Notes: generated from the sequence alone by a model not told the origin. A stretch of DNA of 64,000 nt from an uncultured Candidatus Saccharibacteria bacterium (GCA_965230975.1 OZ246402.1:992859-1056858); one strand, 5' to 3'; shown: positions 41,759 to 64,000, counted from the first letter of the stretch. Made by a program: numbers and translations.

Positions 41759-41791
41759 TAATAGAACTTAAGTGGTTAAAAGTTTTATGTT

Positions 41792-43423: not shown

Positions 43424-43558
43424 TGTTTTATTTTAACATTGTAAGTTTATCATTAGTATACCTATGCGATGTAGTTTGCTAATTCAAAGCCGATAGTGTT
43501 TCCTAAAATTGACAACCTTGAGGGTAAAGTTCTAAAATACGCTGTTTAAAAAATTTAC

Positions 43559-44761: not shown

Positions 44762-44806
44762 TTTTGATTTTAAGGTTAAAATCATTACATATATTAGGTT
44801 AAACAT

Positions 44807-45220: not shown

Positions 45221-45366
45221 ACCTATAACTTCGTACAGTTAATAACGGCTTCAATTCCCCAAGTTGACACTTTTGGGAAACATATAATATAATACCTGTA
45301 ATATTTTTCGACACATTTTATTAATTATAGGGTAAAATCTATATATTAAATATTATTTTAAATAAT

Positions 45367-45741
45367 ATGGCATTCCCAAATTACATCACAGATTTTCCTA
45401 ACCATCCCGATTTAGACCAGTACGTAAATAACCCTCAAAAATTAATTGACTTTTTGTATGATGGCCTGATTTTTGTAGAGTTGGAAAATGATCCATTAAT
45501 GCAAGAATCACTAGGGTTTACACGACTTTCAGAATTAGGATTTCAAAATGATACTAACGAAAGAAATCCACTAGATCCAATAAATCAAGCACAAAATGAA
45601 TTAGAAATTCTTTTAGGAAAAGATTTTTATAAACACCCAGCATTTATTGCAATTCAAAATAAAACAGGTGTTATTGTGGATTCTGCATTAAATGAAGTTG
45701 TATTTATTAAATTACCCGAAAATCAAACGGGTGAAGTATAA
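45367..45741 (+). CDS. hypothetical protein (124 aa)
   Basis: ORF within the same block. Confidence 0.3.
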   Translation: MAFPNYITDFPNHPDLDQYVNNPQKLIDFLYDGLIFVELENDPLMQESLGFTRLSELGFQNDTNERNPLDPINQAQNELEILLGKDFYKHPAFIAIQNKTGVIVDSALNEVVFIKLPENQTGEV

Positions 45742-45761
45742 ATTAAAAAAATTTTAAAATA

Positions 45762-46988: not shown

Positions 46989-47705
46989 CTAACCGCAATC
47001 ACACAATTCTTTCCAATCCGGATCTTTGCAACACTGGTTATCCCTTGCTTTACATCTATATCTGCCATGAAAGATTAATCTTAAGCTCATTTCATTCCAT
47101 TCATTTTGTGGAAAGACTTTCATTAAATCTTGCTCTATCTTTTTAGGGTCTTTATGTATAGTTAAACCAAGTCTATTAGAAGTTCTGATAACATGCGTAT
47201 CTACAACAAACCCTTCGGGTAAAATGACAGGATCATTTATTTGATTATTAATTTCAATATATTCCGGCAAGGGCTCAATTGGCCAATTACCACGATTAGT
47301 TATTGGCATAGCAAACCATTCGGACACAACAACATTAGCTGTCTTTCTACCAACCCCAGGCAAAGTTGTTAGCATTTCAATATTATTAGGCACAATACCA
47401 TTAAAATCAGTTAAAAGATTTTGTGCCATTTGCACCAAATGTTTAGATTTTGTTTTATGATAATTTAAGCTTTTAATAATCTTTTCAACTTCTAGTGAAT
47501 CTGCTTTAGACAAATCTTTGGCAGTAGGGTACTTTGCAAACAAAATAGGAGTTACTTTATTAACACTAGCATCTAGCGTTTGAGCAGACATTAATACTGC
47601 ACAAACAAGTTGAAAAGCAGTTTCATGGTAAAGTGGCGTTTTAACAGTGGGGTAGTCACGCTTTAATAAAGCGGTAATCTTTTCTATTCTTTCGGATTTT
47701 TTCAT
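46989..47705 (-). CDS. nth: endonuclease III (HhH-GPD DNA glycosylase with [4Fe-4S] cluster)
   Basis: LPGVGRKTANVVVSEW HhH-GPD motif and a C-terminal Cys cluster (CKARDNQCCKDPDWKELCDC). Confidence 0.85.
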   Translation of the reverse strand: MKKSERIEKITALLKRDYPTVKTPLYHETAFQLVCAVLMSAQTLDASVNKVTPILFAKYPTAKDLSKADSLEVEKIIKSLNYHKTKSKHLVQMAQNLLTDFNGIVPNNIEMLTTLPGVGRKTANVVVSEWFAMPITNRGNWPIEPLPEYIEINNQINDPVILPEGFVVDTHVIRTSNRLGLTIHKDPKKIEQDLMKVFPQNEWNEMSLRLIFHGRYRCKARDNQCCKDPDWKELCDCG

Positions 47706-47790
47706 ATTATTGAAAAAGATAGCATTTTTTTGTATAATACATTGTCGGTTGTCTTACGACTAGCTTACCTCTAGACTATGTAAGTATCCA

Positions 47791-48678
47791 TTAGGAGACT
47801 GACTTCAAAAAATCCTGAGTACTCAGGATTTTTTGTTTTCTATTAATCCCTAACCTAACTATTCCTTTTCCTAAAATATTGCCATTCTGATTAATTAAAT
47901 TGCTGTAAATTTTATCAAAGAAAATATATCTTTCTTTAAAATCTGAATAAATTCCAAAATCAACATATTGCCTAAACACATTATATCCGCACAGATCTGC
48001 CATCTGCAAAAAGTTCTCACTAGAAGACTTTTTAAAATTTATATCTATAATATTTTTATAATTAAGTTTGAAATCTATCTTAAAATTTTCGCTTTTAGAA
48101 TATACTCGAAACATATCTCCATTCTTACCCTTTGTCTTTTTAAGATTATTTTCCATTTGATCTATAACAACTTCGAGTGGCTTGTTTAAAAACGTAAGTC
48201 TTTCAAACATAACCTGTGTGGATTTAAGAAAAGGATTACCATCTGATTTTGATCTATTCTTTTCAGTAAAAGCCATTTTATTAAAAACTACCGATAAAAC
48301 TTTAATATCATTATTCGAACTAATTAATTGGTAATATTCATTTATAAAATTTATTAAATCAGCTTTTTGAATATTGTATATATCTAGATAATGTTCTTTA
48401 ACTTTAGTAGGATTCCGAAACCAAACTGATTTAAGTTCTACCTTAGTAGTTTTAAAATATTTAAACTTAAGCAGGTTAACAGATTTATTAATTGTAGGAA
48501 TAGCATTTACATCTATTATTACTGCTGTCAAAACGAAAAAATTTCTTTCTGCAAAACCTCTATATTTACGCCAGTCCTTCAATATATTTTCCCATCGTGG
48601 ATTATATGGATCAGAATAAGATTTACCACCAGTATCATCTATAAATGCTTTGTATTTAGGTTTTGTTTTTGGATTCAT
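47791..48678 (-). CDS. hypothetical protein (possibly DUF3800-like)
   Basis: 295 aa. The N-terminal KYKAFIDDTGG resembles the hfIDESG start of DUF3800 proteins. Weak. Confidence 0.3.
   Translation of the reverse strand: MNPKTKPKYKAFIDDTGGKSYSDPYNPRWENILKDWRKYRGFAERNFFVLTAVIIDVNAIPTINKSVNLLKFKYFKTTKVELKSVWFRNPTKVKEHYLDIYNIQKADLINFINEYYQLISSNNDIKVLSVVFNKMAFTEKNRSKSDGNPFLKSTQVMFERLTFLNKPLEVVIDQMENNLKKTKGKNGDMFRVYSKSENFKIDFKLNYKNIIDINFKKSSSENFLQMADLCGYNVFRQYVDFGIYSDFKERYIFFDKIYSNLINQNGNILGKGIVRLGINRKQKILSTQDFLKSVS
47806..47833. terminator. perfect palindromic bidirectional terminator (aaaaaatcctgagt actcaggatttttt)
   Basis: 10-bp perfect inverted repeat flanked by A6 and T6. It overlaps the last 14 codons of the minus-strand ORF 47791..48678. 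Confidence 0.5.
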
Positions 48679-48712
48679 AGTTAATAATCAATATTACCAA
48701 GGATATACCAAT

Positions 48713-49222
48713 TTAGGCTATTATCTGACTTTGGAGCTCTATTAAATTACCTTTCTCAAACTTAGCAGCCATATATAAGTTTCCTGGATTAGTTGAAGTT
48801 ATAAATTCTAAATAATGTTGAATAGGTGGAAATATTATTTTAGATTCTAATACTTCATTAATATCAAACCACTTGCATTCTCCTTCATCCGTACTGATAG
48901 GTTCAACATAATTATCTAGTTTTGCTAAAAATCCATAAATAAGCCATATTTGATCTTTATCAATGTGATGATTTATTGCAGAAACTTTAAGTTTAGTATT
49001 CTCATTACCAACAGATACACCTGTCTCTTCTTTAATTTCCCTTATAACTGCTGTTAATACATCTTCTCCATAGTCTACGTGACCTCCAGGAAAAGTCCAA
49101 TAACCCGGAAAGTTTTTTACGTTATCTGGTCTTTTTTGAAGTAAAACTTTATTTTCAAATCTAACACAACATTCTACAGCGATTCTAATATTAGCAACCT
49201 GGTGTAAAGAAACTGGTTTCAT
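48713..49222 (-). CDS. Nudix hydrolase
   Basis: GGHVDYGEDVLTAVIREIKEETGV is a perfect Nudix box (Gx5Ex7REUxEExGU). Confidence 0.8.
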   Translation of the reverse strand: MKPVSLHQVANIRIAVECCVRFENKVLLQKRPDNVKNFPGYWTFPGGHVDYGEDVLTAVIREIKEETGVSVGNENTKLKVSAINHHIDKDQIWLIYGFLAKLDNYVEPISTDEGECKWFDINEVLESKIIFPPIQHYLEFITSTNPGNLYMAAKFEKGNLIELQSQIIA

Positions 49223-49265
49223 AATTTCAAAAAATATTTATTTAAAATGCTTACTATAAATTAAT

Positions 49266-49817
49266 TTATATATTTGTTTTAATACATCTTACAACATCTT
49301 CAACATTCACATAAAGCACACCTCCGTATCTCGAAACTCCTTTATTTGAATAAAAACGCATAATAGCATCATTTTGGGCATCATGAATAAACAAAGGGCA
49401 GTGATCCATTTTTGATAATACAACTGGCTTATCTTGACCTGGGATTCTTACCACCATTCCCATGTGTGTAAAATAATAATAAGGATGATTCGTTTCCTCC
49501 AAAACACCGCAATCTGAAAAATATAAAGCAATTTGAGGGGCAGAATATGTATCAGGCAAGTTAAAATAGAATGGAATTTCTCCATTATCAACTGATTGGG
49601 AAACTATAGATACAAATAATTCCCAATCTATATTTAAATCTAATTTAAGAACATTATTTAAATGTGCCAAAACATACTGAGAGCAATGCATCTCAAGGCT
49701 TGCAGAACCGACAAGTATTAAGCCCAAACTTTTCAAAAAAGAGACCTGCAATTCGGTAAGAGTAGGGTAGTTATTAGATTCTAAATAGTTAAAGAGCTCC
49801 TTTAATTCTTGCTGCAT
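49266..49817 (-). CDS. hypothetical protein (183 aa; possible Cys/His hydrolase)
   Basis: Conserved-looking MHCSQY and THMGMV segments could be a Cys-His dyad. Speculative. Confidence 0.25.
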   Translation of the reverse strand: MQQELKELFNYLESNNYPTLTELQVSFLKSLGLILVGSASLEMHCSQYVLAHLNNVLKLDLNIDWELFVSIVSQSVDNGEIPFYFNLPDTYSAPQIALYFSDCGVLEETNHPYYYFTHMGMVVRIPGQDKPVVLSKMDHCPLFIHDAQNDAIMRFYSNKGVSRYGGVLYVNVEDVVRCIKTNI

Positions 49818-51335
49818 TTATCCCTCCTCTTGAATTGGTGCTAAAGAATAATGAAGTCTTGGCAACTTACCACCCGAACTAGATACTTTTTCTAGGTATG
49901 CCATTCTTGTTGGGCCAGCATACTCATTAACAACCGGTGGTCTATCTAATTCATTAGGCTTATCTAAATAATCTAATATTAAAAGTAGATGACTACGTAA
50001 CTCATTAAAAATAGATTCTAATTCTTTAATATTTTTATGCAAGTACTTATACTTTTCTTTAAAAGTCTCATAGTCTTGAATTTTATTTGAGTTATCTTTT
50101 AAAAATTTAAAGAGAGCTTGCAACATCTCTTCGTAATTAAATCCGTTCTCATGAAATATGTCCAATGCAGAGCTATTAAAAGTAACGCTTCTTTGTAAAC
50201 TAGTTCCAATTTGAATAAGTTCTAGCTTAAATAATTCTGTCATGTGTGCAACAAGCAAATTTAAATCTGCTCTTAATTTATTGGCCTCTTTATCTGAAAA
50301 GTTATATTTGCCAGTTTTTGGATCAATTTCTAGCCAGTTAGGCAACTTACTGTAATATAATTTGTAAGCGGTTAAAACGGTTTTCATTCCCTCAAAAGTG
50401 GGAATACTTCTTTCAAATCTATCACCATTGACCTGAGATGCCCCTTTTTGAAATGGACGCACATAACTTAAGCTGTTATCTAAAGAGTTATAGCCATCTA
50501 ATAACGCTATATCAGATAACCAACTTGAAACTAACTGCCTTTCATTTTCAGACACAACATCTTTTAATAAATAGGCATGTAAGGCAATTCTTAAAATATC
50601 TAAATCTAGAGGGTATTTAGAAATCTCTAATAAGTCTATTAAGTTAATTGTTTGCGCAGATCTTACTGCTTTTCTAATTAATAAAATGGATTCTGTTAAT
50701 CTTCCATAACTATTTGAGCCTCCTCTAAGCAAAACTTGGGATTCGGCATAATCTACTGGGATAAGTTTTGCCAAATCTGACCTTATTTGAGCTTCCCATA
50801 ATTTCGCCTGTGCAAAATCAAACTCTTTATGAGACCGAGCTACTGATTCAATTACCTTTGATAATAAGACATTAGAGACAATGTATTTAGATACAACAAA
50901 GGATAAAAATCTTATATATAGCTTTGGTCCACTGACAACTTGGCCTAAAACCAAGCGAGTTGTTATTTGCCTATAGATTAGTTTATCTAATTGGGGTAAA
51001 TCTTCAGAATGTAATGCATTTTGGTACCCATTGTCGCAACCAGGTAATACAATAGCTGCAACCAAATAATCTTCTGCTTCGGGTATTTCTACTAATTTCA
51101 AACCTGGAGTCATTAGTAACTCTTCTTTTGAAAGTGTGACTCCTGAGATTCTAACAGCACTATTGAGCCTTAAAGAAGCTTCATTTGGGAATAAAGGGTT
51201 AAACTCCAATTTATTTGCTAGTTGTAAATTTCTTGTTTGTAATTCTATGACTTCACTTGCCATGCAAGGATTATAGCGCACAAAAGGTATTTTTATATAA
51301 TAGTAAACGATTTTAAAAAGAATCTTATTGCTCAC
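49818..51335 (-). CDS. hypothetical protein (505 aa)
   Basis: Long ORF abutting the downstream gene (stop and start adjacent). The true start is possibly the internal Met MASEV. Confidence 0.3.
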   Translation of the reverse strand: MSNKILFKIVYYYIKIPFVRYNPCMASEVIELQTRNLQLANKLEFNPLFPNEASLRLNSAVRISGVTLSKEELLMTPGLKLVEIPEAEDYLVAAIVLPGCDNGYQNALHSEDLPQLDKLIYRQITTRLVLGQVVSGPKLYIRFLSFVVSKYIVSNVLLSKVIESVARSHKEFDFAQAKLWEAQIRSDLAKLIPVDYAESQVLLRGGSNSYGRLTESILLIRKAVRSAQTINLIDLLEISKYPLDLDILRIALHAYLLKDVVSENERQLVSSWLSDIALLDGYNSLDNSLSYVRPFQKGASQVNGDRFERSIPTFEGMKTVLTAYKLYYSKLPNWLEIDPKTGKYNFSDKEANKLRADLNLLVAHMTELFKLELIQIGTSLQRSVTFNSSALDIFHENGFNYEEMLQALFKFLKDNSNKIQDYETFKEKYKYLHKNIKELESIFNELRSHLLLILDYLDKPNELDRPPVVNEYAGPTRMAYLEKVSSSGGKLPRLHYSLAPIQEEG

Positions 51336-51494
51336 TTATATTTCACCGTATCAACACTAAACCTTCACCTTATTTAAGCTATCCTTTCACTAACAATTTA
51401 AGTAGGCTCCAACTTAAATTAAATTGTTAACAACTGGATTTATATTAAAGTTCTTGTTTAAAAGCAAAAAAATGCACAAGAACCAAAATTAAAT

Positions 51495-52076
51495 TTGGTG
51501 AAATTTATTTTTTACAAAACAATTATGAAGACAAAACACTTGGTAGCAGCTGGAGTAGCAAGCATAGCGCTAGGAGGCGTAGCAATTTTACCTTTTGCAG
51601 TAGTATCTGCAGACGAAGTTTCTAGCACAACAGCAACAACTTTTGTTCAAAAGTTAGCAGAAAAGCTAGGGATAAATGTAGAAACTGTACAGACAGCAGT
51701 AGAATCTACTCGTACAGAAATTCGAGATGCTAGAGAAGCTGAAAGAGAAACCGCAATTGCTGATGCAGTAACTGCGGGTACTTTAACTCAAAGGCAAGCT
51801 GATATATTGAATGCAATTGACGAGGCCATGCAAACAATACGCGGCAGCATGACCCAAGAACAAAGAGAAGCAGAACGTGAAGCAAACCAAGGCCTAACTA
51901 TGGAAGAGAGAAAAAATAAGATGGAAACTGAACTTGTAACTGCACTTAACAATGCTGGTTTAAATACAACAGCAGATGAGTTAACAGCAACAAGAGATGC
52001 CGCTAGAGATGCTGACATTATGCCAGCGGGCAAAGGAGGCAGAGGTGGATTTGGAGGACCAGGAATGGGACTTTAA
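51495..52076 (+). CDS. secreted Ala/Glu/Thr-rich helical protein with Gly-rich C-terminus
   Basis: Signal/TM segment (LVAAGVASIALGGVAILPFAVVSA). C-terminal AGKGGRGGFGGPGMGL. Locally elevated GC relative to its surroundings. Confidence 0.35.
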   Translation: MVKFIFYKTIMKTKHLVAAGVASIALGGVAILPFAVVSADEVSSTTATTFVQKLAEKLGINVETVQTAVESTRTEIRDAREAERETAIADAVTAGTLTQRQADILNAIDEAMQTIRGSMTQEQREAEREANQGLTMEERKNKMETELVTALNNAGLNTTADELTATRDAARDADIMPAGKGGRGGFGGPGMGL

Positions 52077-52766: not shown

Positions 52767-52840
52767 TGAGCGCTGAGGGATTCGAACCCCCGACCCTTTC
52801 GGTGTAAACGAAATGCTCTAGCCAGCTGAGCTAAGCGCTC
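52767..52840 (-). tRNA. tRNA-Val (anticodon UAC); no encoded CCA
   Basis: The reverse complement GAGCGCT-TA-GCTC-AGCTGGCTA-GAGC-A-TTTCG-TTTACAC-CGAAA-GGGTC-GGGGG-TTCGAAT-CCCTC-AGCGCTC-A folds as a canonical cloverleaf with a 7-bp acceptor stem, U8, G18G19, T-loop TTCGAAT, and anticodon TAC. Confidence 0.85.
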
Positions 52841-53035: not shown

Positions 53036-54010
53036 ATGGCAAAAACATTAAGTCATAACAAACCAGGGTTCTTTAAAAAGTTAAAGAACCCATTAATAAT
53101 TATAATAATCCTATTATTAGCAACAAATTTACTAACTTTTTTATACTATAAACCTCTAGTAGAAAATCCATTTGAAAATTATAAAAACCCTTACCCATAC
53201 ATAGATTTATCTAGAAGTTTTATAGATCAAGAAAACTTTATTGTTAACTTACAACCTTTAAGGGAATCTTTAGCATCAATTTATAAAGAACATGGAGAAG
53301 ATAAAATTGCACTATATGTTGAATTTCTAAATAGTGGTGCAAATATCTCTTACAATCAAGATGCAAGATATTACCCGGCCAGTTTAATTAAAATGCCTGT
53401 TGCAATCGCAGCGGTAAAAAGAATACAAGATGGATACTGGAATTGGGATAGTAAACTTGTAATTTTTGATGAAGATGTAGATACAAAATTTGGGACAATT
53501 GGCAATTTACCAATTGGAACAAGGTTAACAATTGAAGAGCTTTTAAAAGAGCTATTAACAAAATCAGATAATACTGCATATAAAATGCTATTACGGAATC
53601 TTGGCGCAGGGCCGGTAAATGATTTTCTAACAGAAACTGGTCTAGTAGAATTTTTCGACCAAGATTTAAACATTACTGCAAAAGAATATACAAGGCTTTT
53701 TAGATCTTTATACACTTCAAGCTACTTAAAAAGAGAGTACTCACAAAAGATTCTTAATTTATTAAGCTTAAGTGAAAGAAACTATTTAGGGCAAGCAATA
53801 CCAGCAGATATTATTTATTCGCACAAATTTGGTGAAAATGTTACTGAAAAAATATTTGCCGACTCGGGCATAGTCTACATTCCAGAAAGGCCTTACATTA
53901 TTACTGTATTGTACAAAGGCGGCAGTGAAGATGACAAAATGACCACAGATGCCTTTTTTTATAAAATAAGTAATACTGTTTATAAATTCTTTAACGAATA
54001 CAATAAGTGA
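53036..54010 (+). CDS. membrane-anchored class A beta-lactamase-like / PBP-fold serine hydrolase
   Basis: SxxK (ASLIK) and SDN (KSDNTAYKML) motifs, plus an N-terminal TM helix. The stop overlaps the GTG start of the giant gene (GTGA). Confidence 0.55.
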   Translation: MAKTLSHNKPGFFKKLKNPLIIIIILLLATNLLTFLYYKPLVENPFENYKNPYPYIDLSRSFIDQENFIVNLQPLRESLASIYKEHGEDKIALYVEFLNSGANISYNQDARYYPASLIKMPVAIAAVKRIQDGYWNWDSKLVIFDEDVDTKFGTIGNLPIGTRLTIEELLKELLTKSDNTAYKMLLRNLGAGPVNDFLTETGLVEFFDQDLNITAKEYTRLFRSLYTSSYLKREYSQKILNLLSLSERNYLGQAIPADIIYSHKFGENVTEKIFADSGIVYIPERPYIITVLYKGGSEDDKMTTDAFFYKISNTVYKFFNEYNK

Positions 54011-57000
54011 TTATAAAACGAAAAATTTTAAAAAAAATCATTACTATTGTTATTGTAACAATCCTTAGTCTAATGGCTATCTTTCCGGCAGATATATTAT
54101 TGCAACAAGTTAAACTAGCATTAATAGATAGTGATATTGTTGATACACTATATTGGGCAAATAAAGATACTGGGATAATTGACTCTTTGCTAGATGGCGA
54201 TTTAGTACAAAAGGTAAATGCAGCGGACCCACCTCCAAATGGGTTTTATATAAAAACAGGTGTTTTTTTAGGAAATGCGGCTCCAAAGACAATAAGTGGG
54301 CTTGGTTTCTCTCCAGATTTAGTTATTTTAAAGCCAGATACTACTGCAGGAGCGGGGGCCATATTTAAAACAAAAGCGATGTCTATTCTCAATGTGTCTT
54401 ACTTTGTTGCTACAGCCCAAACAAGTGCTGGAGCAATACAACTTGAAGAAGATGGTTTTACAGCTAGCACGACTACTAGCAACAACGCAAACATACCCAC
54501 TACCTGGACAGCATTTGGAGGTTCTAACTGCACATCAACAGGAGTTTTTTGTACAGGCACTTATATTGGTAGTGGGACTGCAACAAAATCAATTTCAACG
54601 GGGTTCCAACCAGATTTAGTATGGGTAAAAAGATCTACTGCGGTATCGGGTACATTTAGAACATCCTCAATGGGTACAAATGTGGGGCAGTACTTTACCG
54701 CAACCGCTCAAGATACAACAGGGGTTTTATTTACTACTCTTGATTCTGGAGGGTTTACTGTAGGCTCAACAAATAATACATCAACCGGAATTTTTTATTA
54801 TGTTGCTTTCAAAAATGTATCTGGGGCAATAAATGTAGGTAGCTATACTGGAAATGCTACCGATAATAGAAATATAACTGGGGTTGGGTTCACGCCAGAC
54901 CTTGTAATAACTAAAAACTCGGCTACAACAGTTGCACCTGTATTTAATGTAAAAGGTTCAAATGGTGATCACACAAGTCATTTTACCGATACTGCTAAAT
55001 TTGTTAATGGCATTCAAGCACTCCAAAGTGATGGATTTCAAATTGGGACAGATGCCACAGTAAATTCTAACTCAGTCGTATATTACTATGCAGCTTTTGG
55101 AGGGGCTGCTGGGCCATCCTCGGGTAGCGGAACTTTTAAAATGGCAACCGGTTCCTATACCGGAAACGGAGGCGTGCAAGTAATTCAAGGATTAGATTTT
55201 GAGCCAAACCTAGTTATTATTAAGGCCAATTCGGCTCAAACAGGAGTGTTTAGAACATCTGACATGAGTGGTGACCTTACAGCCGTACTAGATGGTGCCG
55301 CCTCGAATATTGCCAATGGTATAATCTCTTTAAATCCAGATGGGTTTACAGTAGGTTCAACTTCCAGAACAAATGCTGCCTCAACAACTTATTACTGGGA
55401 AGCTTTTGGCAATGCCTGGAGGCAAGACACAAATAGTGGAGCTTCTGATTTTTTTATTGGAACATATTATGGTAATGGGCTAGATAATAGAACAATAACA
55501 TTCTTACCGTTTCAAGCAGACCTTCTTGTAATAAAAGGCAACACAACTACAGCAGGTGTATTTAGAACCTCCGATATGAGCGGCGATTTAACCGGCTTCT
55601 TTGCTGCAACTGCAGAAACCACTAACAATATACAAGCAATTAGTTCTAACTCTTTTGAAGTTGGAAGTGGAACAAGTGTAAATTCCAATAATGTCATAAC
55701 TTATTACTTTGGCTTTAAAAATGGGTCAAATTTCAAAGTAGGAACCTATAGTGGTAATGGGACTAGCCAAACAATTTCTGCTGTTGGATTTCAGCCTGAT
55801 TACATATGGGTAAAACAAACTGGAGCAACAAGAGGAATAATGAGAAGTAACTTGGGAGCAACTGACTCAGCTTTTCCTTTCATAAACGCTACTAGTTTTA
55901 CCGGGGGAATCACGGGGATTGTAAGCAATGGATTCACCGTAGGTTCAGCAACAGAAACAAATGCTTCTGGAACAAATAATTATAGGTATATTGCATGGAA
56001 AAATAATTACACTCCACAGTCCAAATCTTATCAAATGAAAACCGGCTATTACATAGGTAACGGAGCTTATAAGCAAATTTCAGGTCTAGGATTCTCACCT
56101 GATCTAGTTATAATAAAATCTGACTCATCTACTACAGGGGCTCTTTTTAAAACAAAATCAATGCCTAACGGATCGACCTCTTATTTTATGGCAACAGCCG
56201 ACTCAACAGCAGGATTAGTAACACTTAAATCAGATGGCTTTATGGTATCTTCGACGGCTACAAGTACTAATATAAGATACACATGGGTAGCTTATAGTGG
56301 TTCAGATTGTACTTCTACAGGCATTTTTTGCACAAATACCTATATTGGGAGTGGTTCTTCGCCAAGAGCTATAACAGTAGTCGGGTTTCAATCTGATTTA
56401 ATAGTCGTTAAGCAAAATAGTACAACTAATGCTGTTTGGAGGTCTTCTAGCATGCCAAACAATTATGTCCAATACCTTTCTGCTACGGTTCAAGATACTA
56501 CAGGTAGCTATATTTCAACTATAGATTCCACGGGATTTACGATTGGTTCAGGAATGAATTCAACCTCTGTTTACTACCACTTTTTCACATTCAAAAATGT
56601 AACCGGCAGTATAAATGTGGGGACATATACTGGAAATGGCACAGACAATCGAAACATCACAGGTGTAGGATTTAAACCAAACTTTGTATTTCTAAAAAAT
56701 GCAGAAACTACGTCAGAAGGCGTGATGAACCTAGATGAATCTTATGGAGACTATTCTAGCTATTTCATCGCAACTGCAAATGTTGCAAACTCAATACAAG
56801 CTTTAATTTCTGATGGATTTCAAATAGGTACCCATGCAACAGCAAATACAAATCTAAACGTTCATTATTATGCCGCTTTTGGAGATGCAGAGGCAAATTC
56901 TGCAGGTACTGGATCATTTACAATGGCTACTGGTAGTTACACCGGAAATAGTGAGTATAAAATATTTATGGGATTAAGCTTTACACCCGATTTAATAATT

Positions 57001-60000
57001 ATTAAAGGAAATACAACTCAGACTGGGGTTTTTAGAACAAGTAGTATGGGAGGAGATTCAACAGCGATCCTAGATGGAGCAACTGCAAATATTGCTAGTG
57101 CAATCATATCTATTAACAAAGACGGGTTTACGGTTGGAAATAGTGCTACGGTTAATTCTAACGGAGTAACCTATTACTGGACAGCTTATGGGAACGCCTG
57201 GAGACCCGAAACTAACAATGGAGCCACAGATTTTTATGTGGGAGCATATTATGCTAATGGTTCTGATAATACAGATATTACAAGGTTACCATTTCAGGCA
57301 GATTTACTTACTATTAAAAGAAATAGTACTACTGCGGGAGTATATAAGACCTCGGATATGTCTGGTGACTTAACTGGGTACTTTGCAGCTACCGCAGAAA
57401 CTACAAATAGCATACAAGCATTTAATACCGATGGATTTGAGATAGGAACAACCGCCAATGTAAATACAGCAACTAACACTTATTGGTACTTTGGATTTAA
57501 AAACGGAAACAATTTCAAAGTAGGCACATATAGTGGTACCGGCAGCGCACAAACTATATCTGCAATTGGATTCCAACCAGACCATGTTTGGGTAAAAGCA
57601 ACTGGAGCAACCAGAGGTATATTAAGAACAAAAGAGGGAGTCACTGACTCAGCATTACCATTTATTAATGTTGGTGCAATAACTGGGGGTATTACAGCAT
57701 TAGCAAGCAATGGAATAACTCTTGGAACCGCATCTGAAACAAACTCTTCAGGTACTAATAACTATAGGTACGTAGCATGGAAAACTCCTTCTGTTACTTT
57801 TTCAAGTAGTGGAACACAATCTACAAATCTAAACGTCAATTCAACCAACAACTATATTGGGGCTGCGTTTACAGCTGTTTCTACTTCAAGCTCAATAAAC
57901 ATAACCAGAATAATTTTATCAGAAACAGGAACTATCGCAGCAAATACAAACCTTGCAAATGTCAAGCTTTACTACGAAACAACTGGAACTTGCACGTATA
58001 ATGGTACAGAAACACAGTTTGGAACGACTCAAAGTTTTGGAGCATCTCAAACTGCCACATTTGATGGCACAATAACGGTTGGCACATCACAAATATGTAT
58101 ATATCCCGTGCTAGATGTAGGTAGTGGTGCATCTGCTGGAGAAACAATTGAACTTGAAATTACATCTTCATCAAATATAAATATATCTACAGGAATAATA
58201 AGCGGTACTTTCCCTGTTACACTAAGTGGAACCACCACATTGATTGCTACGTCTAATACTGCACCCAACAGCCCTGCAAGCTTGGCACAAAAGAAAGTAG
58301 ACGACTCGACAATATCTACAGGTGCTTGGATTAATCAAACATCGGTTAAATTTACTGCAAACGTTAGTGATACAGATAATCCAGATACACTTTACCTATG
58401 TGTAGAGGTATTACCAATAAGTAGCCCTTTTACGGGCACAGAAACAGCATGTGGTAGTAGCGTGTCTTATGTTGGAAGTGCATTAGCTGCAAGTGTAACA
58501 ATTGGAAGTCTTACAGATAATGAATATAAATGGCAGGCTAGAGTAAAAGATAGTTTAGGAGCATACTCCGCATGGGTGCATTTTTCAAGTCTTCCTTCAA
58601 GCTTGATTGGATACTGGAAAATGGACGAAACGAGCTGGACAACTGACTGTTCAACAGCATCTGTAATAGACTCAACTTCAAATGCAAATAACGGAAAGTC
58701 ATGTCCTGGTACAACGGGACCAACGACAACTGCTTCGGGTAAATATGATAGAGCGGGAGATTTTGATGGGAGTGAGGATTATGTTGATACGGGCAGTGGT
58801 GTTAACATTACTAACTTATCATTCACTATAAGTGGTTGGGTCAAAAGAGATGTTACTAATGTTTATGAAATGGTTGTTTCTCAAGGTACTTCAAGTACCA
58901 ATCAAGGTTTACATTTCGGATTTGTTCCAGGAAACGTAGTAAGATGTGGTTTTTTTGGAAATGATTTGGACTCAACTACTTTAATTACAGATACAACTGG
59001 CTGGCATCATATTGCTTGTGCTTATAATGCTTCAACTAATACTAGGTATATATATATTGATGGAGTTTTAGATATTACACAAAGTGGAGTTTCTGCAGAT
59101 TATTCTGGAACAGGTAATCTAATTATTGGGTCTTGGGGGTGGAATATTGGTACAAGTGAGAAATTTAATGGAAAAATAGATGAAGTCAAGATCTATAATG
59201 TAGCAAGAGATCTTTCAGGAATTATAGCGGATATGAACGGCTATTCAGGAACTGACTTCGGAATAGATACCACCGCGCCTACAGGAGGAACAGTTTACGA
59301 CGGCAGTTCAAATGGTGTAGATATTATGTTTAATGATGGGTCATTATCAACTCTATCTGCAAACTGGAGTGGGGTAAATGCAAGCAATGCAGGACTCTCA
59401 AGCTATGATTATTCAATTGGAACTAGTGCCGGTGGAACAGATGTAGTGAACTGGACCTCTAATGGTACTAGTACTAGCATAACCGTAAATAGTTTAAACC
59501 TACAAAGCTCTAAAATGTACTTTTTCAATGTACGAACAAACGACGCGGCTGGAAACTCTGCAACAATAAGTTCTAATGGACAAGTAGTAGCACCATCACT
59601 TACATTTACACTATCTTCAAACTCAATAAACTTTAGTAATTTAAATGCAGGCAATAGCTATTCAGATACTAAAACTACAACATTAACAACATCTACGAAT
59701 GCTTACAATGGCTATGTTATTCGATTATTTAAAACGGATTCCTTAAGATCTGCTACAAGTCCTTCTATAACTATTCCTGACTTTAATGGAGGCACTTATG
59801 CGGCACCAAGCGCATGGGGATCAAATACAGGATTTGGATACACGTCTAACGACACAACAATTCAAGGAGTTAACAAATTTAACCCAGTAACATGTGCAGG
59901 AGGAGGGTCATCTCCATGTTATGCACCAATATCCAGCAGCGCACCTGGTGATATTGTGGCAGATCACACATCTAATGTTACAGGTAGCCCTATTACAAAT

Positions 60001-60099
60001 GAGCAGTTTATAATCACTTATAAGGTTCAAACTCAATCTACTCAATCTGCCGGAACATATTCTACATCTTTGGTGTATACTATAATTCCGCAATATTAG
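54007..60099 (+). CDS. giant secreted surface protein (2030 aa): signal peptide, about 12 tandem ~95-aa beta-rich modules organised as two ~595-aa super-repeats, LamG/ConA-like lectin domain, C-terminal WxL-like domain
   Basis: Repeated module signature GF.PDL[VI].[IV]K...T......[FR][RK]T..M.....YF.ATA......I..L..DGF.VG......N....YY. The LamG block is YWKMDETSW...NGKS...ASGKYDRAGDFDGSEDYVDTG...NLSFTISGWVKRD...GWHHIACAYNASTNTRYIYIDGVL...GKIDEVKIYNVARDLSGI. The C-terminus is homologous to that of ORF 61160..62212. Confidence 0.8.
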   Translation: MIIKRKILKKIITIVIVTILSLMAIFPADILLQQVKLALIDSDIVDTLYWANKDTGIIDSLLDGDLVQKVNAADPPPNGFYIKTGVFLGNAAPKTISGLGFSPDLVILKPDTTAGAGAIFKTKAMSILNVSYFVATAQTSAGAIQLEEDGFTASTTTSNNANIPTTWTAFGGSNCTSTGVFCTGTYIGSGTATKSISTGFQPDLVWVKRSTAVSGTFRTSSMGTNVGQYFTATAQDTTGVLFTTLDSGGFTVGSTNNTSTGIFYYVAFKNVSGAINVGSYTGNATDNRNITGVGFTPDLVITKNSATTVAPVFNVKGSNGDHTSHFTDTAKFVNGIQALQSDGFQIGTDATVNSNSVVYYYAAFGGAAGPSSGSGTFKMATGSYTGNGGVQVIQGLDFEPNLVIIKANSAQTGVFRTSDMSGDLTAVLDGAASNIANGIISLNPDGFTVGSTSRTNAASTTYYWEAFGNAWRQDTNSGASDFFIGTYYGNGLDNRTITFLPFQADLLVIKGNTTTAGVFRTSDMSGDLTGFFAATAETTNNIQAISSNSFEVGSGTSVNSNNVITYYFGFKNGSNFKVGTYSGNGTSQTISAVGFQPDYIWVKQTGATRGIMRSNLGATDSAFPFINATSFTGGITGIVSNGFTVGSATETNASGTNNYRYIAWKNNYTPQSKSYQMKTGYYIGNGAYKQISGLGFSPDLVIIKSDSSTTGALFKTKSMPNGSTSYFMATADSTAGLVTLKSDGFMVSSTATSTNIRYTWVAYSGSDCTSTGIFCTNTYIGSGSSPRAITVVGFQSDLIVVKQNSTTNAVWRSSSMPNNYVQYLSATVQDTTGSYISTIDSTGFTIGSGMNSTSVYYHFFTFKNVTGSINVGTYTGNGTDNRNITGVGFKPNFVFLKNAETTSEGVMNLDESYGDYSSYFIATANVANSIQALISDGFQIGTHATANTNLNVHYYAAFGDAEANSAGTGSFTMATGSYTGNSEYKIFMGLSFTPDLIIIKGNTTQTGVFRTSSMGGDSTAILDGATANIASAIISINKDGFTVGNSATVNSNGVTYYWTAYGNAWRPETNNGATDFYVGAYYANGSDNTDITRLPFQADLLTIKRNSTTAGVYKTSDMSGDLTGYFAATAETTNSIQAFNTDGFEIGTTANVNTATNTYWYFGFKNGNNFKVGTYSGTGSAQTISAIGFQPDHVWVKATGATRGILRTKEGVTDSALPFINVGAITGGITALASNGITLGTASETNSSGTNNYRYVAWKTPSVTFSSSGTQSTNLNVNSTNNYIGAAFTAVSTSSSINITRIILSETGTIAANTNLANVKLYYETTGTCTYNGTETQFGTTQSFGASQTATFDGTITVGTSQICIYPVLDVGSGASAGETIELEITSSSNINISTGIISGTFPVTLSGTTTLIATSNTAPNSPASLAQKKVDDSTISTGAWINQTSVKFTANVSDTDNPDTLYLCVEVLPISSPFTGTETACGSSVSYVGSALAASVTIGSLTDNEYKWQARVKDSLGAYSAWVHFSSLPSSLIGYWKMDETSWTTDCSTASVIDSTSNANNGKSCPGTTGPTTTASGKYDRAGDFDGSEDYVDTGSGVNITNLSFTISGWVKRDVTNVYEMVVSQGTSSTNQGLHFGFVPGNVVRCGFFGNDLDSTTLITDTTGWHHIACAYNASTNTRYIYIDGVLDITQSGVSADYSGTGNLIIGSWGWNIGTSEKFNGKIDEVKIYNVARDLSGIIADMNGYSGTDFGIDTTAPTGGTVYDGSSNGVDIMFNDGSLSTLSANWSGVNASNAGLSSYDYSIGTSAGGTDVVNWTSNGTSTSITVNSLNLQSSKMYFFNVRTNDAAGNSATISSNGQVVAPSLTFTLSSNSINFSNLNAGNSYSDTKTTTLTTSTNAYNGYVIRLFKTDSLRSATSPSITIPDFNGGTYAAPSAWGSNTGFGYTSNDTTIQGVNKFNPVTCAGGGSSPCYAPISSSAPGDIVADHTSNVTGSPITNEQFIITYKVQTQSTQSAGTYSTSLVYTIIPQY
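54250..57820 (+). repeat. intragenic tandem duplication: two ~1785-nt copies (54250-56034 and 56035-57820), roughly 65-70% nt identity
   Basis: Protein segments KTGVFLGNAAPKTISGLGFSPDLVILK...YRYIAWKNNY and KTGYYIGNGAYKQISGLGFSPDLVIIK...YRYVAWKTPS are colinear module-by-module, including the DCTSTG[VI]FCT and NAWR[QP][DE]TN landmarks. Confidence 0.75.
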
Positions 60100-60100
60100 T

Positions 60101-61135
60101 ATGAAAAAACTCTTTATTATAGTTTTGGTGCTTTTCAATTTAACTACTGTCTATGTAAGTGCGCAAAGTGTTGCAGGTCAAAACACGGTTTCATCTATGG
60201 GAATAAACCCTTCAATCCTTGAGGTTGTTTTAGATAAAAATAATGCAACAACACAAGTAATTACATTAAGTAACTTAACTAATTTACCAATTCCTATAAA
60301 AGTTACAAAACAAAGTTTTACACCGAAAGAAAAGCTTTCAATTCCCGAAGATGAATTACACATTTATGATGCATCTTCGTGGATCACTATAGACAACACA
60401 GATACTGACTTTATTTTACAACCACAAGAAATCAAAAATATTGAAATAACCATTAATCAGCCAGAGAACGCATCTCCCGGAGGGCATTATGCAACAATTA
60501 TATTTGAGCCTTTAATCCCAGAGGGGTTAATCTCTCAAAATTCAGTATATATATATGCGAGAGTAGCTGCCCTTATGTTTATGCAAGTTAGAGGAGCGAT
60601 AATTGAAGATGTATCTTTGGAAGGCATTTCTACCAACTTAATAAATGAACCAGGATTAGTTAATTTTAATCTAAATTTAAAAAACAATGGAAACAGTCAC
60701 ATTAGGCCTAAGTCGCAGATTGTTATTAATAATGTACTAACTCATGAAGAGGTTTTAAAAGCAAACTTTCAAGAGGGGATAGTGTTGCCAGGTACTGTCA
60801 GAACATTCCAGTCGCAATTTGAATCCAATACCTTGTTTGGGATCTATTCATATAAAACAACAATCAACTATGGTGCAGATAACTTGGTACTAGAAACTCC
60901 AACTCAATATTTTTTTGTTTTCCCCTACAAGCTAGCGTTTCTTTTAATATTTATAATCCTATTTCTTATTTATATAAAAACTTTTAGACGAAGAATATCT
61001 AAGGCTGTTAAGGTTTTATTCAAAGGAGATAGAGCATCAAAAATGGAACATCAGAAATTTTATAAAAATTCACCATATTTCAGTCACAAAACCCTTGACA
61101 AGAGCTCGGAAAATCGACAAAATAGTAAATTATAA
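60101..61135 (+). CDS. DUF916/CscA-like cell-surface protein: signal peptide, beta-rich ectodomain, C-terminal TM anchor with basic tail
   Basis: 344 aa. GINPSILEVVLDKNNATTQVITLSNLTNLPIPIKV followed by PGGHYATIIFEP. The C-terminus has TM helix LAFLLIFIILFLIYI then KTFRRRISKA. Paralogous to 62276..63199. Confidence 0.45.
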   Translation: MKKLFIIVLVLFNLTTVYVSAQSVAGQNTVSSMGINPSILEVVLDKNNATTQVITLSNLTNLPIPIKVTKQSFTPKEKLSIPEDELHIYDASSWITIDNTDTDFILQPQEIKNIEITINQPENASPGGHYATIIFEPLIPEGLISQNSVYIYARVAALMFMQVRGAIIEDVSLEGISTNLINEPGLVNFNLNLKNNGNSHIRPKSQIVINNVLTHEEVLKANFQEGIVLPGTVRTFQSQFESNTLFGIYSYKTTINYGADNLVLETPTQYFFVFPYKLAFLLIFIILFLIYIKTFRRRISKAVKVLFKGDRASKMEHQKFYKNSPYFSHKTLDKSSENRQNSKL

Positions 61136-61159
61136 GTCGATATTTTTTATTTATATACA

Positions 61160-62212
61160 ATGTTAAAAAGATTTTGGGTTCTAGGTTTTGCAGTTGTAAT
61201 AATATTCTCTGCAATTATGCCAATGCAATTAAGTGCAGCATATTTAAGTACCGGTAGTGTTAGTTTATCAGATTCAAGAATTAGTCAATCTGCAAACTAT
61301 ACACTTACGTTTTCAAATGTAACCACTTCACCAATCAAATGTATTCAAGTTAAGTTTTCAGATGCTGCTACTGCAGGGTCTAAACCAACAGGAATGACTA
61401 TAACATCTGCAACATTTTCAGCAACATCCAACTATGTTCCAACACCAGCAAGTTGGTCTATCAATAACAACAACACTACAGGCGTTAGTCAAATAACATA
61501 TGCAACAGGCGAAACACCTGCAAGTGCATCTAGCAGAACAGTAGTTTTAAATACCATTACTAACGGCTCTACATCTTCTACTGGTTATTTCTTACAGTTT
61601 TCTACATATAACAATGTAGATTGCACAAGTAGTCCTGTAGACAGTGCTGTAATAATGTTTATATTTACAGATGGTCAAGTCGTAACAGCAACAGTTGATC
61701 CAACATTAACATTTACCATTGCAGGAGTTGCATCTGGACAATCAGTTAATGGAGCAACAACTAATATAACAACAACAAGCACAACAGTACCTTTTGGTAC
61801 AGTAACAGCAGCTACAAATAAAATTGCAGCTCACGACTTAGCAGTTGGGACAAATGCAGCTGGAGGTTATACAGTTACAGTTAGATACACCGGTACATTA
61901 GCTGCTGGTACTCCAACAATCTCAGATTTATCTGGTGCTACAAACGCATCTCCAATATCATTTACATCAGCTGGAACTGAAGCATTCGGATACACAACAA
62001 ATGATGCAACATTAGGTACAGGCACAGCAGCAAGGTTTACAACAGCTGGACCAAAATGGGCAGCATTTACAACATCACCTTTAGAGGTAGCTTACAGTGC
62101 AACACCAGTATCAGAAACTACTAGAGTAGGTTATCAAGTAGGTGTAGCTGCAACAACAGAAGCCGGTACTTATACAACAACTGTAGTTTATGTTGCAACT
62201 CCAACTTATTAA
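61160..62212 (+). CDS. secreted Thr-rich protein with C-terminal WxL-like domain (Tyr variant)
   Basis: Signal peptide. The C-terminal ~150 aa (PTLTFTIAG...GGYTVTVRY...GFGYTTNDAT...AGTYTTTVVYVATPTY) is homologous to the giant protein C-terminus (PSLTFTLSS...NGYVIRLF...GFGYTSNDTT...AGTYSTSLVYTIIPQY). Confidence 0.5.
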   Translation: MLKRFWVLGFAVVIIFSAIMPMQLSAAYLSTGSVSLSDSRISQSANYTLTFSNVTTSPIKCIQVKFSDAATAGSKPTGMTITSATFSATSNYVPTPASWSINNNNTTGVSQITYATGETPASASSRTVVLNTITNGSTSSTGYFLQFSTYNNVDCTSSPVDSAVIMFIFTDGQVVTATVDPTLTFTIAGVASGQSVNGATTNITTTSTTVPFGTVTAATNKIAAHDLAVGTNAAGGYTVTVRYTGTLAAGTPTISDLSGATNASPISFTSAGTEAFGYTTNDATLGTGTAARFTTAGPKWAAFTTSPLEVAYSATPVSETTRVGYQVGVAATTEAGTYTTTVVYVATPTY

Positions 62213-62275
62213 TGTTATAAATCGATATCTTTAACGGAGTGCCCATATTGGGCATTTCGTATAGTAAAAAATACT

Positions 62276-63199
62276 ATGCGAAAAATTAAAATAATTACAG
62301 TAATACTTGCATTCTCAGCTTTTGTTTTTGTACTTAGTCAAAAGGTAGATGCTCAAACACCATTATCTAGCTTTGCAATTTCGCCCCCTTCTTTTGACTT
62401 TACAGCAAATCCTGGAGACAGTATTAAAAACTCTATCCGAGTAGAAAATCTTTCTGATATTCCATTAAATATTACTGCCAAACCAGAAAACTTTGTTGCA
62501 TATGGAGATAGTGGACAGGTTTCTTTAACAGAAGAAGATACTAGTTATGCTATAGATAAATGGATTAACTTGCCGGTAAATATAATAACAATAAACCCTA
62601 AAGAGTCCGCAACTTTTGAATTTAATGTAGATATTCCAAAAAACACAGAACCTGGTAGCCATTATGGTGCAATAGTATTTTCTACTTTATCTGCACAAAC
62701 CGCAGAGAGCACTGGGGCCTTTGTACAACAAGAAATTGGAGCCCTTATTTTAATAAAAATTCCAGGAGATGTAATAGAAGAGGCAAACTTAATAAGCTTT
62801 GATTCTAAAGAAGATCTTTACACAGACACAAGCTTAACATTAACAGCTTTAATTGAAAATAGCGGAACACTTCATTTTAAACCTGTTGGTAGAATTTATA
62901 TAAAAGATATTTTTGGTAATTTAATACAAACAGTAGAAGTTCAAAGCAAGAATATTCTTCCAAAAAACAAACGTCAATTTGAAGAGAACTTTTCTTTTGA
63001 TAGTATAGGTTACTATAAGGCAGAGCTAGAACTTTTTTATAAAAATGGAGAAAAGGTAATTAAAGCAGATACTTACTTCACATCATTAAATCTTTCAAAG
63101 TCTATTCCAATACTATTAATTATTGGTGCTTTTGGTACAATGTACCTAATATTCAGAAAAAGAATAAACAAAGCATTAATGATCATTATTAAGGGTTAA
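62276..63199 (+). CDS. DUF916/CscA-like cell-surface protein, paralog 2
   Basis: 307 aa. FAISPPSFDFTANPGDSIKNSIRVENLSDIPLNITAKPENF followed by PGSHYGAIVFST. The C-terminus has TM helix IPILLIIGAFGTMYLIF then RKRINKA. Confidence 0.45.
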   Translation: MRKIKIITVILAFSAFVFVLSQKVDAQTPLSSFAISPPSFDFTANPGDSIKNSIRVENLSDIPLNITAKPENFVAYGDSGQVSLTEEDTSYAIDKWINLPVNIITINPKESATFEFNVDIPKNTEPGSHYGAIVFSTLSAQTAESTGAFVQQEIGALILIKIPGDVIEEANLISFDSKEDLYTDTSLTLTALIENSGTLHFKPVGRIYIKDIFGNLIQTVEVQSKNILPKNKRQFEENFSFDSIGYYKAELELFYKNGEKVIKADTYFTSLNLSKSIPILLIIGAFGTMYLIFRKRINKALMIIIKG

Positions 63200-64000
63200 T
63201 GAAATTCGTAAGATGTACGCTCACAATTTTAGTTATCTTTTTTATATCTGTATTTTTAACTTCTAAAGTTAATTCTCAATCAGTAACTTTTAGCGTAGGG
63301 GTAGAAGATTCTTCAATTGAATTCTTGGGTTATACCTCTCCAAATGGTTTTATAACTTTTAAAGAAGGGGGCTCTGTAATCGGAACAACTACAGCAGATT
63401 CAGTAGGCTATTACTATAAAAACTTTACGGCAGTACTAGTCGGAATACACACTATAGAGATATACTCTACAGATGTAAATGGAGTAAATACACCCCAATT
63501 TTCGTATGAAATAGTTGTTCTACCTACTCAAATTACATCAATCAGCTTTGATTTTCCTCCAACTTTACAGTTAAATAAAAATACATATACTAATGAAGAT
63601 GTATTAGTTAAGGGATTAGCCAAACCCAACTCAAACATTTCAATTAAACTTGATGGAAGTGGAATTCAAGAATTTAATACCATTTCAAACAACTCTGGTG
63701 AAATAAGTTTTATAATATTAAAGCAATTTTTGCCAACTGGGGATTTTATTGTTAATGCGTATTTAACTGATTCGATTGATCAAAGTTATAGTAACACATT
63801 AAATTTTCAATATAACCCAGGATTTGTACCTATTATCAACAATATACCAGAGGGGCCTATTAAGGATATAAGCGAACAAATATCTGGCTTGCTTCAAGAG
63901 TATTTTTGGGCACCATTAGGCTCTTTGTTAAATAATGGGGGTAGAGTACAGGGTGAAGTAATAGAAACAACTACGCTAGATAATTATTTGCAAAATACAT
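63199..64000 (+). CDS. secreted Ig-like/beta-sandwich surface protein (5' partial; runs off the window end)
   Basis: Its ATG overlaps the upstream stop (TAATG). The first 267 codons are open to the window edge. Signal peptide MKFVRCTLTILVIFFISVFLTSKVNSQ. Beta-rich repeats. Confidence 0.5.
   Translation, partial: MKFVRCTLTILVIFFISVFLTSKVNSQSVTFSVGVEDSSIEFLGYTSPNGFITFKEGGSVIGTTTADSVGYYYKNFTAVLVGIHTIEIYSTDVNGVNTPQFSYEIVVLPTQITSISFDFPPTLQLNKNTYTNEDVLVKGLAKPNSNISIKLDGSGIQEFNTISNNSGEISFIILKQFLPTGDFIVNAYLTDSIDQSYSNTLNFQYNPGFVPIINNIPEGPIKDISEQISGLLQEYFWAPLGSLLNNGGRVQGEVIETTTLDNYLQNT

Follow-up and report, generated by a model that had tools for sequence, protein, structure and literature searches.

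The gene cluster analyzed in this study lies at one end of a 64,000-nucleotide (nt) stretch of the genome of an uncultured Candidatus Saccharibacteria bacterium (GCA_965230975.1, OZ246402.1:992859-1056858), hereafter referred to as the window, and encodes a giant secreted protein of 2030 amino acids (aa) together with smaller secreted and membrane-anchored proteins. Its closest described counterpart is the Pam pilus. A preprint from 2026 reported cryo-electron microscopy (cryo-EM) of these thin filaments from Ca. Mycosynbacter amalyticus, a parasite that belongs to the Candidate Phyla Radiation (CPR) (bioRxiv 10.64898/2026.03.03.709456). According to this preprint, the pilins PamA and PamB consist of a nine-strand beta-sandwich N-terminal domain (NTD), a single linking strand, and a truncated immunoglobulin (Ig)-like C-terminal domain (CTD), which accepts the strand of a neighboring subunit. 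The tip subunit PamT comprises only the CTD without a donated strand, PamC and PamD (WP_260763277.1, WP_260763284.1) are PapD/FimC-like chaperones that unusually possess a C-terminal transmembrane (TM) helix, and PamR, an RbmA-like protein with a C-terminal TM helix, was proposed to be the terminator and anchor. The same work found a “tail fibre-like protein” co-localized with the pam operon, and an ATP-synthase neighborhood around pamA (10.64898/2026.03.03.709456). Our comparisons made use of the NCBIfam models NF058578 (PamR), NF058579 (PamT), and NF058581 (pilin C-terminal domain).

The second system that has to be considered is the WxL/Csc surface complex. Clusters of this type encode a small WxL protein, a large WxL protein, a WxLIP that combines DUF916, DUF3324 and a TM helix, and an LPXTG protein (PMC9772566, PMC10599100; PDB 9i1y, 9i25). 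A hairpin strand of the WxLIP was predicted in 2023 to fill a gap in the WxL sandwich (PMC10599100), which amounts to donor-strand complementation, although it was not given that name. For comparison we used the canonical WxL loci L046–L051 (Enterococcus, Lactiplantibacillus, Lactococcus, Lactobacillus plasmids) and 27 WxL proteins, all of which contain PF13731. To our knowledge, WxL complexes are not known to form filaments.

The cassette in the window consists of five genes on one strand, in the order giant, 344-aa protein, 350-aa protein, 307-aa protein, and a fifth open reading frame (ORF). The first four are separated by gaps of 1, 24, and 63 nt, and the stop codon of the 307-aa gene overlaps the ATG of the fifth gene by 1 nt in the sequence TAATG at position 63199. 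A public contig (L001) is identical to the window (0 mismatches across 11,725 nt) and contains the complete fifth gene; the identical contig is present in the samples of SRR12762303 and SRR12762304. The features of the cassette are as follows.

54007..60099, + strand: giant secreted subunit of 2030 aa, proposed tip adhesin; ORF with a GTG start
54232..57804, + strand: twelve tandem DUF7483 (tail-fiber-like) modules of ~98 aa in the giant, aa 76-1266; the modules align with one another
58765..59211, + strand: Laminin_G_3 (ConA-like lectin) domain of the giant, aa 1587-1735; PF13385, E 9.9e-22, 78 bits versus a cut-off of 27.6
59593..60099, + strand: aa 1863-2030 of the giant, proposed C-terminal acceptor module, which begins with PSLTFTL and ends in ...IIPQY; hhalign versus the pilin C-terminal family
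60101..61135, + strand: predicted chaperone A, 344 aa; a signal peptide precedes two beta-sandwich domains and a C-terminal TM helix, and a basic tail of ~55 aa follows; paralog of the 307-aa protein
61160..62212, + strand: proposed major pilin, 350 aa; the signal peptide is followed by a beta-sandwich NTD (~aa 28-169), a strand and a C-terminal acceptor module; NF058581 match
61673..61699, + strand: candidate donor strand GQVVTATVD, pilin aa 172-180; conservation, position-specific scoring matrix (PSSM), low AlphaFold2 confidence
62276..63199, + strand: predicted chaperone B, 307 aa, WxLIP/PapD-like; its signal peptide is followed by two beta-sandwich domains, a TM helix (273-292) and a basic tail; PF06030
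63199..64000, + strand: fifth gene, cut by the window end, proposed terminator and anchor; full ORF on L001 10924-11811, 295 aa

A first-pass annotation of the window had listed these five co-directional ORFs, their gaps and the TAATG junction, and ORF calling recovered all of them. It had also correctly recognized the 344-aa and 307-aa proteins as paralogs (25% identity, E 9e-26) with a signal peptide, a beta-rich ectodomain, a TM helix, and a basic tail, as well as the further Ig-like secreted protein that runs off the window and is completed to 295 aa by L001. Equally well founded was its observation that the giant and the small 350-aa protein share their C-terminal domain (30% identity pairwise, E 5e-6; giant module versus pilin C-terminal family: hhalign probability 98.9%, E 2.8e-17), and Laminin_G_3, a family that it had named as worth searching for, was found on the giant well above the Pfam cut-off. 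The CPR-like character that it had ascribed to the genome was likewise supported.

As the product of this locus we propose a donor-strand-exchange pilus of the Pam type, assembled without an usher by a monoderm-like CPR bacterium. The giant would be its tip adhesin, and two chaperones held in the membrane and a further membrane anchor would complete the system. We assign this explanation a probability of roughly 0.75. The homologies, domain architectures and synteny on which it builds are shown by the comparisons described in the following.

The C-terminal 145 residues of the 350-aa protein match NF058581 (CPR_Pam_pilin_C) over profile positions 2-148 of 148 (E 3.9e-9, 36.7 bits), and this model was matched by 53 of the 56 members of the pilin family. 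Over 342 aa, a range that includes both domains, the protein is 40% identical (E 2e-58) to the pilin of locus L040, which reaches 124.5 bits on NF058581; the pilins of L037, L038, L040, and L041 score 97–124 bits, above the cut-off of the model. Judged by sequence, the shared C-terminal module is a Pam pilin C domain and not a detectable WxL domain. The AlphaFold2 monomer of the pilin (predicted local distance difference test, pLDDT, 91.4) shows a signal helix, eight strands of at least three residues plus two short bridges within residues 32–168, a confidence dip at residues 170–180 (block 171–180 with a pLDDT of 65), an isolated strand at 183–189, and a beta-rich CTD at 195–350. This predicted succession of NTD, strand, and CTD matches PamA and PamB as described from cryo-EM, the comparison being one of descriptions. 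Residues C61 and C155 are invariant in the pilin, and cysteines come in pairs, as reported for PamA and PamB. The pilin family as a whole contained 1816 clusters at 50% identity (E ≤ 1e-3; 1019 clusters at 1e-10). At one locus (L018, 17513-19612, − strand), the other strand carries a second, divergent pair of chaperone and pilin genes, separated from the main cassette by 4 kb; the pilin of this pair is 26% identical to that of the window.

Directly upstream of the module, 53 pilins share a conserved strand with the motif GQxV[ST]x[ST]VD, and the module itself starts at P[ST]L[ST]F in pilins and giants alike. The strand was absent from 22 of 22 giants examined (median PSSM score −21, versus +23 in pilins). 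A strand of the VAVSATV type is retained in mini-members of the family (P0303, P0311, P0349, and P0290; 213–229 aa), which consist only of a signal peptide, this strand, and the module, a layout closer to classical chaperone-usher pilins than to PamA and PamB. The PamT profile NF058579 aligns from approximately the module start onward. Because the giants lack the strand, the mini-members keep it and the PamT profile begins at the module, GQVVTATVD is the better candidate for the donated strand, and we infer that it fulfills this function. Residues 171–180 are also the sole low-confidence stretch of the AlphaFold2 monomer. The final residue of pilins and giants is aromatic in every case, which may recall the anchoring of the C-terminal carboxylate in chaperone-usher pili.

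The giant matches DUF7483 (E 4e-67) and Laminin_G_3 (E 1e-21) in Pfam. Its DUF7483 modules form two super-repeats of six modules each, whose halves are 59.8% identical over 587 aa, and they match the PHROG families “tail fiber protein” (E 2.5e-51) and “virion structural protein” (E 9e-46). Giants of 1000–3000 aa with a variable N-terminal part stand first in the cassette at 21 loci. Among these proteins, the middle part (lectin and Ig) and the C-terminal module are conserved, and length and N-terminal content vary: the C-terminal module is 56–73% identical between genomes while the remainder has diverged, and the first ~1860 residues vary freely. At locus L034, a 356-aa module-bearing protein occupies the position of the giant. 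Locus L041 encodes, directly after a chaperone, a 1927-aa protein (12101-17884, + strand) in which YVTN beta-propeller repeats are combined with a bona fide Pam pilin C domain (113.7 bits), and which represents a second kind of head on the same module. Fusions of a giant head with the module therefore belong to the Pam family. As the module of the giant is an acceptor without a donor strand, this protein would have to be located distally, at the tip of the filament.

The two membrane-anchored proteins of the cassette turned out to be related to the WxLIPs. Chaperone B exceeds the gathering threshold of PF06030 (WxLIP_PGBD, formerly DUF916; 35.3 versus 27.3 bits), and 54 of the 58 members of the chaperone family matched this model. 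In a search of 177,635 PDB sequences with the chaperone family profile, only EfmWxLIP1 was found (E 3e-7). An alignment of the chaperones, including the 344-aa protein, aligned with six Firmicute WxLIPs at an hhalign probability of 99.1% (E 1.2e-18, 236 columns), and domain 1 alone reached 98.3% (E 2e-14). The AlphaFold2 model of chaperone B (pLDDT 91.9) has two beta-sandwich domains; a long strand comes after a low-confidence loop at residues 138–150, and residues 273–292 form the TM helix. Its best Foldseek matches in the PDB were the Enterococcus faecium WxLIP structures 9i1y and 9i25 (E 6e-13), with 260–271 columns aligned across both domains (TM-score 0.41–0.50), and the next ones were CfaA, CsuC, Caf1M, FimC, DraB, and YadV (E 1e-10 to 1e-8). 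The TM helix and the basic tail are present in both window chaperones and in all six Firmicute WxLIPs fetched. There is also a link to the Pam system: chaperone B is 30% identical (E 1e-33) to the L040 chaperone, whose gene adjoins a bona fide Pam pilin, and for chaperones of bona fide Pam loci PF06030 was the top Pfam match, albeit below threshold (E 1e-4 to 0.05). We conclude that the Pam-type chaperones and the Firmicute WxLIPs are one family, which joins two systems so far treated as unrelated. The DUF916/CscA assignment made in the first-pass annotation was thus borne out. The search for DUF3324 (PF11797) that it had recommended gave no Pfam match among the 58 chaperone members, and domain 2 alone reached an hhalign probability of 0.4%, although the Foldseek alignments with 9i1y and 9i25 extend over both domains.

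The Pam system itself has already been described. The kinship of its chaperones with the WxLIPs is the more interesting result. The locus is distinguished by this kinship, which no paper that we could search mentions, and by a giant adhesin with its own chaperone. The earlier suggestion that the architecture would be new in CPR bacteria accordingly holds for the relationship to WxLIPs but not for the system. The Pam preprint and its supplement contain no mention of WxL, WxLIP, or DUF916 (10.64898/2026.03.03.709456). We also found no paper linking WxL proteins to donor-strand pili, although the publication behind 9i1y and 9i25, which we did not locate, may already do so.

Orthologs of chaperone A were present at 21 of 21 loci with an upstream giant and at 0 of 10 loci where upstream sequence is available and a giant is missing. 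This strict co-occurrence points to a dedicated chaperone for the giant.

The fifth protein (295 aa, as completed by L001) comprises a signal peptide, two Ig-like domains, for which Big_3_5 and Big_6 gave matches below threshold, and a C-terminal TM helix. Its N-terminal strand SVTFSVGV, located directly after the predicted cleavage site, is conserved. The genes in the fifth position at loci L018 and L031 encode longer proteins that match NF058578 (CPR_pilus_PamR) at 95 and 83 bits, respectively, and share an N-terminal part with the window protein, which suggests a role of the latter as terminator and anchor. At twelve other loci (L006, L009, L011, L013, L016, L017, L019, L023, L025, L028, L030, and L039), a dockerin-like repeat (CDLNxDxxCxxxDFSILLYY) takes the place of the TM helix at the end of the fifth protein. 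This ending suggests a different tether of the filament base, which is possibly cohesin- or calcium-dependent.

A scan of species-representative genomes yielded 41 related loci, labeled as Dojkabacteria, WWE3, Woesebacteria, Saccharibacteria/Saccharimonadia, and Patescibacteria. The order giant, chaperone A, pilin (one to three copies), chaperone B, anchor occurs at 15 or more, i.e. at least 15, of the 41 loci. The arrangement of the cassette is not due to chance and is conserved across CPR classes. All relatives were labeled as CPR or carried doubtful labels, and the lineage is indicated by the homolog labels Dojkabacteria, WWE3, and Patescibacteria. Cassette loci in records titled Acidimicrobiales, Gammaproteobacteria, or Pseudomonadales (L045, L011, L016, L021, L030, L034, and L043) are probably mislabeled bins; if any of these labels were true, the pilin family would not be exclusive to CPR bacteria, contrary to the publication.

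In the proposed mechanism, all subunits would be exported by Sec. Two membrane-anchored chaperones, homologous to WxLIPs and predicted to have the PapD/FimC fold, would use the strand that concludes their first domain to close the groove of subunits that have just been exported, chaperone A serving the giant and chaperone B the pilin; each subunit would then be passed on to the next incoming strand. The pilin, built from the beta-sandwich NTD, the GQVVTATVD strand, and the C-terminal incomplete Ig-like module, would use this strand to fill the module groove of the next distal subunit, resulting in a linear filament. Pilins would carry both donor and acceptor, the giant with its acceptor module but no strand could be placed only at the distal tip, and the fifth protein without an acceptor would be the membrane anchor, the 295-aa Ig-like TM protein ending growth and tethering the filament. 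At the tip, the giant would display its twelve tail-fiber-like modules and its ConA-like lectin domain for binding to the surface of a host bacterium.

The features shared with the published Pam pilus are a pilin whose NTD, strand, and incomplete Ig-like module are homologous to the NF058581 family, two PapD-like chaperones that keep a C-terminal TM helix, a TM-anchored Ig-like protein as last gene product, Sec signal peptides on all products, a tip subunit with an acceptor but no donor strand (the giant as proposed tip here, PamT there), the affiliation with a CPR lineage, and the lack of an usher, a sortase, or an ATPase. The systems differ in that the cassette has one pilin gene versus three (PamA/B/E/T, PamC/D, and PamR are listed for M. 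amalyticus), in that the proposed tip is a 2030-aa adhesin instead of the small single-domain PamT, and in gene order; moreover, the pilin remains below the NCBI cut-off, and the fifth protein is shorter and has no PamR match. Classical chaperone-usher pili (Pap, Fim, Csu, CFA/I, Caf1) likewise share with the cassette a chaperone of two Ig-like domains, as reflected by the Foldseek matches, incomplete Ig-like subunits, an acceptor-only tip adhesin, and the invariant final aromatic residue. In contrast, the cassette has no usher and the organism no outer membrane, the chaperones are membrane-anchored here but soluble there, and the candidate donated strand lies internally between two domains instead of forming an N-terminal extension. 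The likeness to chaperone-usher systems is one of fold only, as neither the usher nor the PapD Pfam families (PF00345/PF02753) matched any cassette protein. Sortase-dependent pili are also a poor match, with no LPxTG and no TLxTC motif found.

Several observations weigh against the assignment to the Pam pilus. The pilus is known here from genes and predicted monomers, the pilin scores 36.7 bits on NF058581 where the NCBIfam cut-off for naming is 55, and the fifth protein does not match the PamR model NF058578. No Pam structure was among the matches of the pilin model in the PDB copy searched, in which no Pam pilin entry was found. The donated strand may be PTLTFTI instead of GQVVTATVD. The signal-peptide cleavage site of the giant (FPA/D) is atypical. 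An ATP-synthase neighborhood was detected neither among the ORFs scanned (window 40058-52076) nor in the Pfam annotations of the L001 genes. We also considered that the N-terminus of the anchor might be a copy of the pilin strand; this was rejected, as the best PSSM match was N-terminal in 7 of 23 proteins versus 4.1 expected, and scores were low.

The most serious competitor is a WxL/Csc-type surface complex, in which the large and the small protein would bind non-covalently to the cell wall via their shared domain and be stabilized by the DUF916 proteins, forming a platform and no filament. Such a complex had been inferred in the first-pass annotation, and part of its reasoning stands: both TM-anchored proteins are genuine WxLIP homologs in sequence and fold, TM helix and basic tail included, a large multidomain and a small protein have a C-terminal module in common, and a small anchored protein closes the cluster, so that its logic matches that of the canonical loci L046, L049, and L050 (small WxL, WxLIP, large WxL, small anchored protein). 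There is a faint resemblance between the final beta-hairpin of the module and the region of the second WxL motif (hhalign P 0.008–0.009), and a hidden Markov model (HMM) of the Pam module scored real WxL domains above reversed ones (p = 1.4e-4). However, the reverse decoy test was negative (p = 0.92), and PF13731, the family by which a WxL domain had been expected to be recognized, matched none of the 56 pilin family members at E ≤ 1 and nothing on the giant. When the module was compared with 21–36 WxL domains, hhalign probabilities were 0.7–4.9% and those of an NTD control were equal. Altogether, no significant signal of a WxL domain in the shared module was obtained from Pfam searches of the 56 members, from hhalign run three times on alignments of growing diversity, or from HMM-decoy tests. 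The top matches of the pilin model did not include 9i25_A, a solved WxL chain, although it is contained in the PDB sequence copy. No W-x-L motif occurs outside a signal peptide, none of the five products contains LPxTG, no sortase signature was found in the window, DUF3324 is undetectable by sequence, and the organism belongs to the CPR and not to the Firmicutes. An additional NTD and a conserved strand are present in the small protein, which is homologous over its full length to proteins of a family whose founding members were seen as filaments by cryo-EM. The csc-like layout is thus real as far as DUF916 and the large and small proteins with a shared domain are concerned, but no WxL domain is detectable, the LPXTG protein is missing, and the Pam pilus is closer; we consider a WxL/Csc complex unlikely.

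Two further explanations concern the giant. It might be a stand-alone adhesin or an S-layer-like protein next to unrelated beta-rich surface proteins, as could be expected from the free variation of its N-terminal 1860 residues between genomes. This is difficult to reconcile with the strict co-occurrence and fixed order of giant and chaperone A in at least 20 genomes, and with a C-terminal module that is homologous to that of the pilin and stays conserved while the rest diverges, and we regard it as very unlikely. A prophage or a phage-derived tail-fiber region would account for the PHROG matches of the DUF7483 modules, but the neighborhood contains housekeeping and surface genes and no other phage genes, relatives of the pilin or of the N-terminal half of the giant were not found in 2.9 million viral contigs, and the cassette lies on the chromosome and has been conserved in numerous genomes of CPR bacteria. 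A phage origin therefore appears the least probable of all explanations considered, with hardly any weight.

A broader hypothesis goes beyond the Pam pilus of this locus and unites it with the rival system. Tentatively, and with the odds somewhat against it, the Pam pilus and the Firmicute WxL/Csc complex may have branched from a single old assembly system of bacteria with one membrane, which works without an usher and is centered on a membrane-anchored WxLIP-type chaperone that donates a strand to an incomplete beta-sandwich. The cassettes would then correspond part for part, with a large adhesin, a small subunit, a chaperone, and a small anchored protein in each. The predicted insertion of a WxLIP strand into the WxL domain follows the same principle as donor-strand complementation (PMC10599100). 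Homology of the chaperones of both systems is evident from our data; homology of the acceptor modules is hypothetical.

The transcription unit to which the cassette belongs is probably larger than five genes, because genes on both sides overlap its ends. The upstream one is the following.

53036..54010, + strand: membrane-anchored beta-lactamase-fold protein, 324 aa; PF13354 Beta-lactamase2, E 1e-38

Its stop codon overlaps the GTG start of the giant by 4 nt, and it is possibly the first gene of the unit. L008 has a counterpart with 72% identity in this position, and more distant loci lack it there. The encoded protein might be a cell-wall remodeling partner or a mere neighbor. Just past the window end, L001 continues with further co-directional genes, the first of which (11792-12832, + strand) overlaps the fifth gene by 20 nt. 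Its 346-aa product has a CHASE sensor domain (E 1e-29) between two TM helices and lacks an output domain; in L008, a weakly similar protein (27% identity) is encoded at the corresponding position. A tRNA-Val(tac) gene (52767-52840, − strand) between the upstream genes and the cassette is likely the upstream limit of the transcription unit. Promoter and terminator scans gave counts equal to those of shuffled sequence and are uninformative on transcription units. Farther upstream, the window contains a T-box leader (36962-37166, + strand; 102.6 bits, above the gathering score) and a gene for a 566-aa protein with a peptidase M23 domain and beta/gamma-crystallin repeats (40058-41758, + strand), a candidate host-interaction or cell-wall-lytic surface protein. 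A 412-aa ORF (42185-43423, − strand) has retained no UvrB domains other than ResIII and UvrB-interaction and resembles a uvrB gene that is truncated or split.

Attachment to other bacteria is the way of life of CPR bacteria, and little is known about the means by which they locate these hosts and hold on to them. The cassette suggests a widespread answer, namely a cheap, ATP-independent filament with a swappable giant tip adhesin made of phage-tail-fiber-like receptor-binding modules. With the variable heads of giants of 1000–3000 aa and a pilin family of 1816 clusters, host range may become readable from the N-terminus of the giant. The WxL system is a 20-year-old but mechanistically unclear surface system of enterococci, listeriae, and lactobacilli, which has been linked to virulence and gut adhesion. 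The WxLIP kinship ties the discovery made in CPR bacteria in 2026 to this system and provides it with a testable assembly mechanism. If both indeed descend from one assembly system, Pam pili would not be an invention of CPR bacteria only, and the WxL proteins of Enterococcus, Listeria, and Lactobacillus may be assembled, and perhaps polymerized, by donor-strand exchange.

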